This document shows, piece after piece, positions 27,801 through 36,198 of a stretch of 64,000 bases of DNA (positions are counted from its first letter, which is position 1; each line of letters starts with the position of its first letter). The position numbers were made by a program. The DNA comes from Escherichia coli (lineage in GTDB: Bacteria; Pseudomonadota; Gammaproteobacteria; Enterobacterales; Enterobacteriaceae), in the NCBI RefSeq assembly GCF_041248615.1, contig NZ_CP158426.1; one strand, 5' to 3'.

Positions 27801-30800
27801 TGAACACCACGTCGGTGAAAAGTGGACAGCAATGGGATGCGCCAAATGGCTGGGCTCCCCTGCAATGGGTGGCGACAGAAGGGTTGCAAAACTACGGGCA
27901 GAACGAGGTGGCGATGGACATTAGCTGGCACTTCCTGACCAATGTTCAGCACACTTATGACCGGGAGAAGAAGCTGGTCGAGAAATATGATGTCAGTACC
28001 ACCGGAACAGGTGGCGGCGGTGGCGAATACCCGTTGCAGGATGGCTTTGGCTGGACCAATGGCGTGACGCTGAAAATGCTGGATTTGATCTGCCCGAAAG
28101 AGCAACCGTGTGACAATGTTCCGGCGACGCGTCCACTCAGTGAATCAACAACACAGCCGGTAAAACAAAATGAGGCGGAACCTACGCCTTAACTTTACTG
28201 TATATCGAGCAATGCCATTACGTGCATAAAATTGGCATTGCTCTTTCTTCACCACGAAATACCAAATACCACTCTTTCTACGGTCTATGCCTTTATTTTC
28301 TTTTATTAGAGAAGATTTTAATTTTATTTTATCAACTTGTTAATCATTACACCTCTATTTATATTTTCCCCCACTCCCCATTCTCCCTGACAATTTTCTT
28401 GTGGAACAAAGTGTTATTTAAGAAACAAGCAAATCATTCTGTCTCTTTAGACAAATTTTGACATCAAACATGATCTTTTTCGCTATATGTGTAAGTATAT
28501 AGCGGTTTTAATTATCAGGATATTACTTATGTCACTAACCAGACGGAGGTTTACACAGATTCTTGCGTCGACATTGTTCCTGCATCATCTGCCGTCCTTT
28601 GCACTATCAGTCAAATTCTGGGCCTCACTGACGCTTCCCGAAGCCCAAAACATTACACGCATCGTCAGCGCAGGCGCGCCCGCCGATTTACTATTGCTGG
28701 CTGTCGCGCCAGAAAAAATGGTCGGTTTTTCCTCTTTTGATTTTGCCCGTCAGGCATTAATTCCATTGCCAAAGCACATTCGCCAGTTCCCCAGGCTGGG
28801 ACGACTCGCCGGGCGCGCCAGCACACTCTCGCTGGAAGGGCTTATGGCGTTACATCCCGATTTGGTCGTTGATTGCGGCAATACGGATGAAACCTGGATC
28901 TCCCAGGCACGGCAGGTTAGCGAACAGACACAAATACCCTGGTTATTGCTTAACGGGAAACTGGAACAATCAGCAGAACAGTTAACAACGCTTGGCAAAA
29001 CGTTAGGCGAAGAGCACCGCGCCGCAGAACAAGCCAATCTCGCCAGCCGCTTCGTTGGTGAAGCTCAGGCATTCGCCACCTCACCCGCCGCTAACCTCAG
29101 CTTTTATGCTGCGCGCGGTCCTCGAGGGCTGGAAACGGGCTTACAGGGTTCGTTGCATACCGAGGCGGCGGAATTATTAGGTTTGCACAACGTCGCGCAA
29201 ATAGCCGATCGCCACGGTCTGACACAGGTTTCCATGGAAAATCTCCTGCGCTGGCAGCCGGATATTATTCTGGTTCAGGAGGCCGTTACTGCAGATTTTA
29301 TTCGTCGTGATCCTCTCTGGCAGGGCGTGAAAGCCGTTGCGGAACAACGCATCTTATTTTTAAGTGGCTTGCCCTTTGGCTGGCTGGATGCCCCACCGGG
29401 AATCAACCGTCTTCTGGGATTACGCAGACTTCACGCCTGGCTGGATCCCGCCATCAATCGCCAGTTTAAAAGTGACATACAGCATTACGCCCAACTGTTC
29501 TGGCATTGCCCATTAAGTGACGCCGACTATCAAAAATTGGTGGCGAGCTAATGAGAACCGTAAACGGATGTATTTTGCTGCTGGCAGCTATCAGTATCAC
29601 TTTTGCCGCCGTAAGTGGGGCTTATCATCTCGATATACAGCAACTGCTGGCGCTCATTCTTCGTCAAGAAAATGTTCCTGTGCAGGAACAAATTGTCTTC
29701 TGGCAAATCCGCGTACCGCGTATTCTTGCTGCGCTGTTTCTGGGCGCGGCGCTGGCAGGGGCCGGAACCACCTATCAGGGAATGTTCCGTAATCCCTTAG
29801 TGTCACCGGATATTTTAGGCGTCTCCGCCGGTGCCGGACTTGGTGCCTGCGCGGCAATCCTGTGGGGATTATCCATTGTTTACATCCAGCTGTACGCATT
29901 TTGCGGCGGGCTGATGGTGGTCGCGGGCGTCTGGTTGATTACGCGTCGGGTGACCCGCCACGATCCGATCTTAACCCTGGTGCTGGTAGGCATTGCGTTA
30001 GGAACGTTGTGCGGAGCGGGGATATCGCTAATAAAAACGCTGGCCGATCCTTACACCCAGTTACCGTCAATTACCTTCTGGTTGCTGGGGGGGCTGTCCA
30101 CCGTGACCTTACGCGATCTCTGCTATGCTGCACCGATCATTCTCATAGGCTCCTTGCCCCTGTTTTTTCTCCGCTGGCGCATGAATTTACTCACGCTTTC
30201 CGACGACGAAGCCCGTTCGCTGGGACTGAACGTGACACGTCTGCGCTTTGGATTAATTGTCTGCGCCACACTAATCACCGCCAGCACGGTAGCAATAGCG
30301 GGCATAATTGGTTGGGTCGGCCTGGTCGTTCCGCACATTGCCCGCTTGTTGACCGGTCATAACCATCAGCAGCTGTTGCCCATGGCAATGTGTACTGGCG
30401 CGATTCTGCTCCTGCTTACCGATACGCTGGCACGCAGCATTGGAACAACAGAAATCCCACTTGGCATTCTGACCGCTTTTGTTGGTGCACCGTTTTTCCT
30501 GTTTTTGTTGTTACGCGGAGGTCGCCAGTGACTTTGCTTGCCGTCCGTCATGCGTCTCTGGGTTACTCCCGCCATCCGGTGCTACGCGACGTGTCCTTCA
30601 CCCTGTCGCAAGGAACAATTTGTTGTCTGTTAGGAGCCAATGGTTGCGGCAAAACCACACTCATGCGCTCCATTCTTGGCGTTATACCGTTATTAAAAGG
30701 CGAGATCTTACTGGATAGCCTCCCTGTGCAGACACTCAGCCATCGCCAGCGCGCGCAGGCTATTGCCTGGGTGCCGCAGGCGCACGACGGCATTTTTGCT

Positions 30801-33800: not shown

Positions 33801-36198
33801 AGTTTTTATTATCAGGGAACGACCCAACTAAACGATCGTTTTACCCTGAAAAGTCGGCTGTATCGCGACACCTTTGAAAATACGCTGATGATGTACAACT
33901 CGCTGGCTGATTTAAAAAATAAAAAAGGCAGCTACAGCCATTATTCCGATTACAGCGACGGTGCCGGGTTACAACTGGCAGCCGATGTGCGTGAAAACGA
34001 TCTGCTGTCGTTTGCCGTTAACTGGAAAGATGACGTACACCGGGAAAAAGGTGCGCCGCACGCCGCTTACGATCGCTATGAAGATCGTACCTGGTCGCTC
34101 GCCAGTGAATATCAATGGGCTGCTGCCGATAATGTCGATGTCGTGGCTGGAATCAGCTATGACTGGCGCGATAGCGTAGAAGCGAAAAAACATGAGAAAG
34201 ATGGAAGCATCACCCATTATGACGACAACAATCAGTCAGCTTTTAACTGGCAGGTGATGGGGAAATACCACTTTGCCAATGAAGACACGCTGGCGCTTTC
34301 GTACTATGACCGCACACGCTTTCCGACGCTGAAAGAACGCTATACCACGTCCAAACCTGCGTATAACCAGATAGCGATTGTTAACCCGCAGCTCAAACCG
34401 GAACGCGCGCGCGGGGTGGATTTAACCTGGAATGGTGCCTTCACGCACGACTGGGGGTTTGAGGTCAGCGTTTACTATAACCGGGTGAGTGATGCCATCC
34501 TCTCGCACAATATCGATGCCGATACCATTCAAAATCAGAACAGCGGCACGGTGGATTACAGCGGTCTGGATGCCGGTATTAAGGGGAAAATCAGCAATAT
34601 ACTGGATGTAGGATTGAGCTACGCCCTGATCCACGCTGATGCCAAACGCAAAGACATCGGCAAGATAACCGATCTGCCAACGCAGACAATGACCGCATGG
34701 ATGACTCTCAAACCGTGGGAGCCGTTAAACGTAACGCTGTCGGAAGAGGCGCGTTCCTCCAGCTACAGCAACAGTGACGGTTCACAAAAAGCCGCCGGTT
34801 TTGCGGTGACCCACATTCGAGCCGATTACACCTTAGGTCATGGCTTCAGCGTCAATGCGTCGGTCAATAACCTGTTTGATACCAAATATGCCTACAGTGA
34901 AGGGTTTATTGAAGAAGGTCGCAATTTCTGGGCAGGTATCGAGTATACGTTCTGATGTGAAAGCGGATAGCGGCATCTGTATCGCTATCCGCCTTATGAA
35001 AATCTTATTCTCTTCGCAGGAGGCGGAATACGCCCAGCACCAGGATAGCGCCCACTACCGCCACCAGGAAGCTGTGCAGATTAAAACCACTGATGGAGCC
35101 GCCAATGCCAAACATGGTCGCCAGCCAGCCGCCGACCACCGCACCGACTATCCCGAGAATACAGGTCAGGAAAAATCCACCACCATCACGCCCCGGCATG
35201 ATTAGCTTGGCGATAATGCCGGCTATCAGGCCAAAAATAATCCAGGCAATAATTCCCATGTTCAGGCCCTCGTTTCGATGAATCGGACGCAAGAACTGCT
35301 TACGTCAACGCTCTAAGTATAGGCAAGGGCGGAATCGATGCTGGGCGTATGTCGGCTGATTTAAGAACAACATGTAAAAAATATTCACGCATTTGTATTA
35401 AGTTTTGTTAACTGTGACCGATAAACCAAAGACAGTTTGTCAGTCAGGAGTTTTTCCGCGTGAGTCATTACCATGAGCAGTTCCTGAAACAAAATCCGTT
35501 AGCCGTCCTGGGCGTGTTACGCGATTTGCACAAAGCCGCAATTCCTTTGCGTATCAGCTGGAATGGCGGGCAGCTGATCAGCAAAATACTGGCAATAACT
35601 CCGGATAAACTGGTGCTGGATTTCGGCAGCCAGGCCGAAGATAACAACGCCGTGCTAAAGGCGCAGCACATTATCATTACCGCCGAAACTCAGGGTGCGA
35701 AAGTCGAGTTTACTGTTGAACAACTACAGCAGAGTGAATACTTGCAGCTTCCGGCATTTATTACCGTACCGCCTCCCACCTTATGGTTTGTACAACGACG
35801 CCGATATTTCCGCATCACCGCCCCACTCCATCCGCCTTATTTTTGCCAGACCAAACTGGCGGATAACAGTACGTTACGTTTCCGCCTGTATGATTTGTCG
35901 TTAGGCGGCATGGGCGCATTACTGGAAACAGCAAAGCCTGCCGGATTGCACGAAGGCATGCGCTTCGCTCAGATTGAAGTCAACATGGGGCAATGGGGTG
36001 TTTTTCACTTTGACGCCCAGTTAATCTCAATCAGCGAGCGCAAAGTGATTGATGGCAAGAATGAAACCATCACCACTCCCCGTCTGAGCTTCCGTTTTCT
36101 TAACGTCAGCCCGACGGTGGAGCGGCAATTACAGCGGATTATTTTCTCTCTCGAGCGGGAAGCCCGGGAGAAAGCGGACAAAGTGTGCGACTGATTTA

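Follow-up and report, generated by a model that had tools for sequence, protein, structure and literature searches.

A six-gene TonB-dependent operon annotated for iron uptake in Escherichia coli probably serves molybdenum or tungsten acquisition

What does the six-gene TonB-dependent uptake operon between treA and ymgE of Escherichia coli import, and under which condition is it expressed? We addressed this question in a stretch of 64,000 nucleotides (nt) of E. coli DNA (the window; NCBI RefSeq assembly GCF_041248615.1, contig NZ_CP158426.1), in which the operon encodes a class III periplasmic binding protein, a permease, an ATP-binding cassette (ABC) ATPase, a methyltransferase dependent on S-adenosylmethionine (SAM), ModD and a TonB-dependent receptor. 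It is the cluster named prrA-modD-yc73-fepC, whose parts all belong to known kinds and which is annotated as putative iron uptake in uropathogenic and O157 E. coli. The cluster was first described by Guyer, Kao and Mobley in 1998 on a pathogenicity island of strain CFT073, and its O157:H7 equivalent, OI#55/S-loop#83 (ECs1693-ECs1699), is said only to possibly mediate iron uptake. An earlier note on this DNA had stated that no characterised function is known for this gene combination; the substrate is indeed uncharacterised, but the cluster had already been named in the literature. A literature search found no experimental work on the substrate or regulation of the operon and no expression data under the O157 locus tags. 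The same note had held the substrate to be unreadable from the sequence, which proved too pessimistic: a ModE operator, a MolB-like permease and the genomic contexts of ModD all point to molybdenum (Mo) or tungsten (W). The operon is thus probably a pathway of Mo (or W) acquisition induced by molybdate starvation, and not an iron system.

The spacer between treA and the operon is 336 nt long and contains a predicted operator of ModE (28479-28506; Table 1), a regulator whose gene is core in E. coli and lies outside the window. Its half-sites, CGCTATAT/ATATAGCG, match 17 of the 20 specified positions of the E. coli ModE consensus ATCGNTATATA-N6-TATATANCGAT, as quoted by Rodionov et al. (PMC545781). 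The core CGNTATAT-N8-ATATANCG is exact at this site and occurs nowhere else in the window, where the runner-up ModE score is 14/20. The same scorer assigns 16/20 to the modA operator of K-12, which ends 17 nt before the modA start codon, and the E. coli modABC operon resembles the six-gene operon in operator motif, in distance to the first start and in its predicted repression by ModE-molybdate. The similarity ends there, as ModABC belongs to the type I importers, relies on a class II binding protein, has no outer-membrane component and no enzymes, and shows no meaningful similarity to the operon proteins past the ATPase fold. Upstream of the box, TTGA(C/T) recurs at a distance of about 15-25 nt in the aligned orthologous promoters of 26 species, and the TTGACA of the window may accordingly be a promoter element. 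The CAGGA around the Shine-Dalgarno sequence is kept in the Escherichia and Citrobacter promoters.

The box is conserved with the operon. Among 74 loci encoding relatives of ModD (one genome per species), about 50 contain all six genes in an unchanged order, although protein identity falls as low as 43-60%; such an arrangement, shared by about 50 Enterobacterales genomes, is far beyond chance. Of 50 orthologous operons, 49 have a box scoring 14-20 of 20 immediately before the binding-protein gene, and they range from Escherichia, Citrobacter, Raoultella, Enterobacter, Klebsiella and Serratia to Pantoea, Erwinia, Pectobacterium, Proteus, Morganella and Providencia, and in most of the aligned promoters the start codon follows 15-35 nt downstream. 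The lone operon without a box, that of Citrobacter braakii ATCC 51113 (L006, about 6074-6554), is on a contig that also lacks the treA match and the 5' part of the binding-protein gene, which suggests that its promoter region was deleted or rearranged. In Affinibrenneria salicis, the box lies about 250 nt, not about 25 nt, upstream of the binding-protein match. In Proteus, Morganella, Providencia, Pectobacterium and one Serratia, the receptor gene is preceded by a longer spacer with a second box, and Shewanella carries 19/20 boxes ahead of both the binding-protein gene and the receptor gene. The receptor orthologue of Pseudomonas aeruginosa has a weaker box (16/20) that ends 12 nt before the ATG; the locus has 68% G+C, and outside the spacer its next-highest ModE score is 12.

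Scores of at least 16/20 were obtained at only 88 positions in the 1.45 Mb of all loci retrieved, all of them before genes of the operon or other Mo-linked genes. Among the latter are an operon of modA-like, Mo_ABC_porter, ATPase and ModD genes in Yersinia alsatica and an operon for a WtpA-like transporter. Another is the gene of a NifA/AnfA-like activator beside those of an Fe-only nitrogenase, a sensible positive control for the scorer. This last site, in an Enterobacterales metagenome-assembled genome (MAG; L065, 2270-2297), is a perfect 20/20 box before a sigma-54 activator adjoining anfHDGK-anfO, and ModD lies there between the anf cluster and a Mop/WtpA-like transporter.

The transporter itself points in the same direction. 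PF01032, PF00005 and PF01497 match three adjacent, overlapping genes, as in a type II ABC importer of the BtuCD/MolBC class. The closest solved relative of the permease is HI1471/MolB (2nq2_A; 5.9e-65, 223 bits, 43% identity over 313 positions), ahead of FhuB (175 bits), HmuU (168) and BtuC (146), and the top single-domain solved relative of the ATPase is HI1470/MolC (2nq2_C; 1.2e-35). MolBC-A of Haemophilus influenzae (HI1470-HI1472) is a "secondary" type II importer of molybdate that also binds tungstate and is repressed by molybdate (PMC4031551, PMC3928620), and its genes lie in the order modA-molCBA-modD-salX-cysU (PMC3928620). The two systems share the FecCD-type permease, the class III binding protein and an adjacent modD, which is HI1473 in Haemophilus. 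They differ in that the E. coli operon adds the TonB-dependent receptor and the SAM methyltransferase, whereas the Haemophilus locus holds a ModA-like gene and salX-cysU instead, and in that the E. coli binding protein is only about 20% identical to MolA. Molybdate repression has been shown for molB and is predicted for the E. coli operon. The N-terminus of the binding protein carries the twin-arginine motif LTRRRFTQ, in which RR-x-F is nearly invariant among 17 orthologues.

ModD provides the third line of evidence. It is the only product of the operon above a curated family cut-off in NCBIfam, scoring 503.6 bits against TIGR01334 (cut-off 178.85) over the full length of the model (1-277 of 277), while the NadC model gives 135.1 bits, below its cut-off of 198.4. 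Outside the operon, ModD adjoins genes for ModA/B/C-like, WtpA-like, Mop and ModE-like proteins in Cedecea, Yersinia, an Alcaligenaceae MAG, Gilliamella, Treponema and others, and these contexts are likewise preceded by ModE boxes. NadC shares with ModD both QRPTase domains and most of the residues that bind quinolinate and ribose; its genomic context, in contrast, is NAD synthesis, whereas that of ModD is Mo transport, and the C-terminal phosphate-binding segment differs. In an alignment with the quinolinate phosphoribosyltransferase (QPRTase) of Mycobacterium tuberculosis, ModD keeps K94, T129-R130-K131, H152-R153, E195, D216 and G243-G244, the residues that hold the quinolinate carboxylates and the ribose in QPRTase. 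Lys172-Asp173 of QPRTase is replaced by Phe-Ala, with Phe163 at the Lys172 position invariant in 19 ModD sequences. Since this replacement is invariant in the family, the reaction of ModD probably differs from that of NadC.

The methyltransferase matches Methyltransf_31/12/25 in Pfam, with an invariant SAM motif DMGCGPG. Searches of NCBIfam, of PDB sequences and with the model fold returned only generic small-molecule class I methyltransferases; the AlphaFold model has a mean confidence (pLDDT) of 89.6, and its Foldseek matches reach a template modelling (TM) score of about 0.5. Five-gene versions of the operon without ModD (Shewanella, Edwardsiella tarda) still have the methyltransferase gene next to the transporter genes, and in other Edwardsiella the methyltransferase and ModD form a two-gene operon preceded by a box.

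The receptor is matched by both PF07715 and PF00593, as expected of a plug and a 22-strand barrel. Its N-terminus reads by eye as a signal peptide, MRLKKRYLCTALSLAFTQQAVA/AQES, followed by the TonB-box-like DTLTVWS at residues 27-33, and the translation ends in ...GIEYTF, with a terminal aromatic residue. None of the curated subfamily cut-offs in NCBIfam is reached: the subfamily matches are TIGR01783, TIGR01785 and TIGR01786, the siderophore and haem types being the best and all below cut-off. Solved structures match in the plug only (1e-6). The earlier description of the receptor as BtuB-like is too specific, as the TonB-B12 model yields 79 bits against a cut-off of 599.7. Orthologues are 57-65% identical in Shewanella and 45% identical in P. 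aeruginosa, where the receptor is a core gene. The P. aeruginosa orthologue (L079, 7961-10525) has no ABC or methyltransferase genes nearby and must therefore feed another inner-membrane system, presumably ModABC, which carries free molybdate. Its neighbourhood contains moaA, a gene for a PpiC-type rotamase and narGHJI, and a 182-amino-acid (aa) Oxidored_molyb open reading frame (ORF), whose product looks uncharacterised, overlaps the stop codon of the receptor gene.

From these features we infer the following course of events. When cytoplasmic molybdate is sufficient, ModE-molybdate would bind at 28479-28506, on or just downstream of the promoter, and block transcription; when Mo is scarce, the operon would be derepressed. 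The receptor would then use TonB energy to concentrate Mo or W species in the periplasm, where the binding protein, probably exported by the twin-arginine translocation (Tat) pathway, would capture the cargo, and the MolBC-like type II importer would carry it into the cytoplasm. There, the substrate of the methyltransferase and ModD may be the cargo itself or a small molecule involved in its handling. As for the cargo, we tend to favour molybdate or tungstate as such, or else a labile complex, because MolBC-A carries an oxyanion, the Pseudomonas receptor must feed another system and ModD accompanies ModABC-type transporters.

Several observations weigh against a Mo or W pathway of this form. 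The binding protein resembles MolA only distantly. Its nearest solved structure, the uncharacterised 4pag of Sulfurospirillum, is far nearer and ranks ahead in both profile and fold searches, while MolA (HI_1472) is fourth by profile (4.8e-13) and fourth by fold (TM 0.66, 20% identity), with a fold score similar to those of proteins labelled iron-binding, so that the fold search does not discriminate the ligand. A TonB-dependent receptor with a class III binding protein usually signifies a chelate or cofactor and not an oxyanion of 160 Da, which permeates porins. The constant co-transcription of the methyltransferase with the transporter is left unexplained. A promoter and terminator scan gave counts not above those of shuffled controls, and no convincing -10 element pairs with TTGACA; with no good -10 hexamer, the 22-nt distance from the box to the start codon is all that argues for repression over activation, and ModE is also able to activate genes. 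Finally, iron uptake is the label given to the operon both in the literature and in RefSeq.

Some of these points would be accommodated if the cargo were an organic complex of Mo or W, a "molybdophore" with a catecholate- or pyridine-carboxylate-type chelator. In this variant of the Mo/W pathway, which we regard as possible but doubtful, the methyltransferase and/or ModD would disable donor atoms of the ligand in the cytoplasm, thereby freeing the metal or blocking its re-chelation. Systems for chelates and cofactors are as a rule built from a receptor, a class III binding protein and a type II importer, and MolA, an oxyanion binder, is no close relative of the binding protein. The persistence of the methyltransferase beside the transporter in the ModD-less operons suggests that the imported molecule is modified, the modelled methyltransferase resembles enzymes that methylate O, N or S atoms of small molecules, and ModD has retained the QPRTase residues by which the carboxylates of a pyridine dicarboxylate are held. 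Against this, MolBC-A, the closest characterised transporter, carries free oxyanions, the stand-alone P. aeruginosa receptor must feed another system, ModD is also found with ordinary ModABC-type transporters, and the locus contains no genes for the biosynthesis or export of a chelator. The variant remains a serious one because of its chelate-typical architecture, a binding protein unlike MolA and an obligatory methyltransferase that is otherwise unexplained. An analogy, and nothing beyond it, is provided by the opine-metallophore operons (staphylopine/pseudopaline, cnt), which place cytoplasmic small-molecule enzymes and a dedicated metal-chelate importer under a metal-sensing repressor, one of the enzymes having a methyltransferase-like, SAM-using fold; they have no known sequence relationship with the operon and a different regulator, and the operon lacks an exporter gene and an opine dehydrogenase.

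It is unlikely that the operon instead salvages the Mo cofactor (Moco), a precursor, a pterin or another organic cofactor under ModE control, with the methyltransferase and ModD as tailoring enzymes. The architecture resembles that of cofactor importers such as BtuB-BtuFCD, in which a TonB-dependent receptor likewise works with a class III binding protein and a type II ABC importer; two cytoplasmic enzymes would act on small heterocycles; the P. aeruginosa receptor adjoins moaA and the Oxidored_molyb ORF; and the predicted regulation by ModE would fit. However, an Rfam search of 27900-35600 (E at most 1) found no riboswitch, neither of the Moco nor of the cobalamin class, in or upstream of the operon, the sole sub-threshold match lying past ymgE. 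In many lineages, ModD is accompanied by an ordinary ABC transporter for molybdate or tungstate, the nearest characterised transporter moves the oxyanion, and Moco outside proteins is chemically very labile. Cobalamin uptake was rejected specifically: there is no cobalamin riboswitch, the BtuC models give 243 bits (cut-off 461) and 197 bits (cut-off 334), no BtuB, BtuC or BtuF cut-off is reached, and the permease is nearer to MolB than to BtuC (223 versus 146 bits).

Uptake of an iron chelate or haem, of the FecABCDE, Hmu or Yiu kind, with the palindrome being incidental, appears very unlikely. The Fur-regulated systems (FecABCDE, Hmu/Chu haem uptake, YiuABC-YiuR) have protein families and layout in common with the operon, which accounts for its iron annotations: iron uptake was proposed in 1998 and has been repeated since, and RefSeq names the binding protein "iron ABC transporter substrate-binding protein". 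In addition, the best subfamily matches of the receptor to hidden Markov models are siderophore and haem types, though all below cut-off, and the fold neighbours of the binding protein include YiuA and binders of haem and siderophores. In contrast to those systems, the operon and its orthologues have ModE boxes as the conserved promoter element in place of Fur boxes, and two extra enzyme genes. Regulation by Fur was rejected, as the best upstream match is 13/19 and no Fur box is conserved in the 49 orthologous promoters, where the mean best match is 11.9/19 compared with 11.4 in random windows. The permease is clearly nearer to MolB than to FhuB, HmuU or BtuC, and no protein of the operon reaches a curated cut-off for an iron system. 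That the palindrome at 28480-28505 acts as an RNA hairpin, either a terminator or a structure of the 5' untranslated region, rather than as a protein-binding site is highly improbable: the terminator scan does list an 11-pair stem followed by TTTTAATTAT, but the half-sites (CG-TATAT ... ATA-CG) are conserved across species while the 6-nt spacer varies, the halves in Proteus and Providencia no longer pair well yet keep the half-site letters, the K-12 modA operator has the same motif, and the motif also precedes unrelated Mo genes.

Three points about the operon appear to be new, namely its predicted place in the ModE regulon, its connection with Mol-type Mo/W transport and, by implication, a TonB-dependent step for Mo at the outer membrane; the literature search found no link of ModE or Mo to the operon, an earlier prediction being possible (Studholme & Pau 2003, Tirado-Lee 2011, RegPrecise). 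More tentatively, the operon might represent the first TonB-dependent outer-membrane route for Mo/W, coupled to methylation and/or phosphoribosyl-type chemistry by ModD on a small molecule carrying the metal. If so, enteric pathogens would possess a "molybdophore"-type pathway that has been mislabelled as iron uptake for over 25 years. The anaerobic respiration by which Enterobacteriaceae come to bloom in the inflamed gut and urinary tract is driven by molybdoenzymes, such as the nitrate, dimethyl sulfoxide (DMSO) and trimethylamine N-oxide (TMAO) reductases and the formate dehydrogenases. To our knowledge, the acquisition of Mo by Enterobacteriaceae under scarcity is known only for ModABC. 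An energy-dependent outer-membrane route for Mo or W, if confirmed, would be present in about 40% of complete E. coli genomes, including extraintestinal pathogenic E. coli (ExPEC) and O157 strains but not K-12, and would correct the long-standing "iron uptake" annotation. The operon is a candidate fitness factor, given its conservation in Proteus, Morganella, Providencia, Citrobacter and Shewanella and the orthologous receptor in P. aeruginosa, and the orphan ModD family and its partner methyltransferase gain a concrete, testable setting.

The operon is present in 2149 of 5426 complete E. coli genomes (40%; megablast, identity of at least 95%), almost always on the chromosome. In K-12, the interval between treA and ymgE holds only ycgY, as the earlier note had stated; ycgY was considered as a remnant of an operon gene and rejected, since comparison with the operon revealed no such relation. 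Homology between K-12 and the window ends one base past the treA stop codon (28193) and restarts at 34932, such that the last 24 nt of the receptor gene are still present in K-12. The order treA-operon-ymgE also occurs in E. albertii and several Citrobacter species, and the operon adjoins treA in Raoultella, Enterobacter and Intestinirhabdus. A scan of the window found no integrase, tRNA or compositional break at the segment, except for the AT-rich promoter region. The arrangement in E. albertii and Citrobacter and the remnant in K-12 indicate an ancestral locus that was lost or replaced in K-12 and other lineages, and not a recently inserted island. The proposal of an accessory cargo locus thus stands with respect to variable presence and fails with respect to insertion.

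The genes are listed in Table 1, with starts taken from the annotation in related RefSeq/NCBI records. An ORF listing and direct reading of the junctions confirmed six plus-strand genes packed with overlapping or near-overlapping ends, as described before, with the TAATG junction spanning 29549-29553, GTGA at 30528 and ATGA at 32105; the ATPase gene is separated from the methyltransferase start at 31296 by 9 nt rather than the 10 nt given earlier, and the spacer between ModD and the receptor gene is 25 nt. The families named in the earlier note all hold in Pfam/NCBIfam searches (Peripla_BP_2, FecCD, ABC_tran, class I SAM methyltransferase, QRPTase_N and QRPTase_C, Plug and barrel). Downstream, where the receptor gene and ymgE converge, the inverted repeat between them may terminate transcription in both directions; it falls in the segment common to K-12 and was not called by the terminator scan because it has no T run. 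Beyond ymgE lie ycgR, emtA, ldcA and cvrA.

Table 1. Positions in the window of the operon genes, their predicted control elements and the flanking genes
Feature	Position	Strand	Description
treA	26492-28192		upstream flanking gene
-35-like hexamer TTGACA	28458-28463	+	read directly, 15 nt upstream of the ModE box
Predicted ModE operator	28479-28506	.	TTCGCTATATG-TGTAAG-TATATAGCGGT; ends 22 nt before ATG 28529
Shine-Dalgarno AGGA	28517-28520	+	read directly, 8 nt before ATG 28529
Binding protein	28529-29551	+	340 aa, Peripla_BP_2, class III; longer ORF from 28487
Permease	29551-30531	+	FecCD family, type II ABC importer, MolB-like
ABC ATPase	30528-31286	+	252 aa; GTG start overlaps permease stop
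Methyltransferase (yc73)	31296-32108	+	270 aa, class I SAM-dependent
ModD	32105-32959	+	284 aa, quinolinate phosphoribosyltransferase paralogue
TonB-dependent receptor (prrA)	32985-34955	+	656 aa; ORF reaches back to TTG 32964
Inverted repeat	34964-34993	.	perfect 10-bp repeat (GCGGATAGCG, 10 nt, CGCTATCCGC), read directly; between convergent receptor and ymgE genes
ymgE	35005-35292	-	downstream flanking gene

The AT-rich spacer (G+C about 0.40) also contains a 79-aa ORF with a GTG start (28222-28461), and an alternative ATG of the binding-protein gene at 28487 falls inside the ModE box; both are probably unused, because the RefSeq start of the binding protein corresponds to position 28529.

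Variants of the locus were encountered in several records. In E. coli O157:H7 EDL933 (L001, 3309-14307), the methyltransferase gene has an internal stop codon while the other five operon genes are intact; in the flanks, treA carries a frameshift and an IS3 element interrupts ycgR. Two receptor entries (P0124 and P0142) suggest decay of the locus in some lineages: some E. coli records encode a 720-aa receptor fused to the PilZ/PilZN domains of YcgR, and the receptor of Shigella flexneri is shortened to 486 aa (568 member sequences). Affinibrenneria salicis carries the whole operon twice on one scaffold (L041, L042), the two copies being indistinguishable in gene coordinates and identities. A 3.2-kb contig of a "Collinsella sp." MAG (L002) encodes proteins 98-99% identical to those of the E. 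coli operon and is almost certainly a binning contaminant. Elsewhere in the window, the best Fur-box match overall (GAAAATGATAACCAGTATC, 16/19) lies at 17440-17458, between a 363-aa ORF (15986-17077) and a 955-aa ORF (17919-20786), and is unrelated to the operon.

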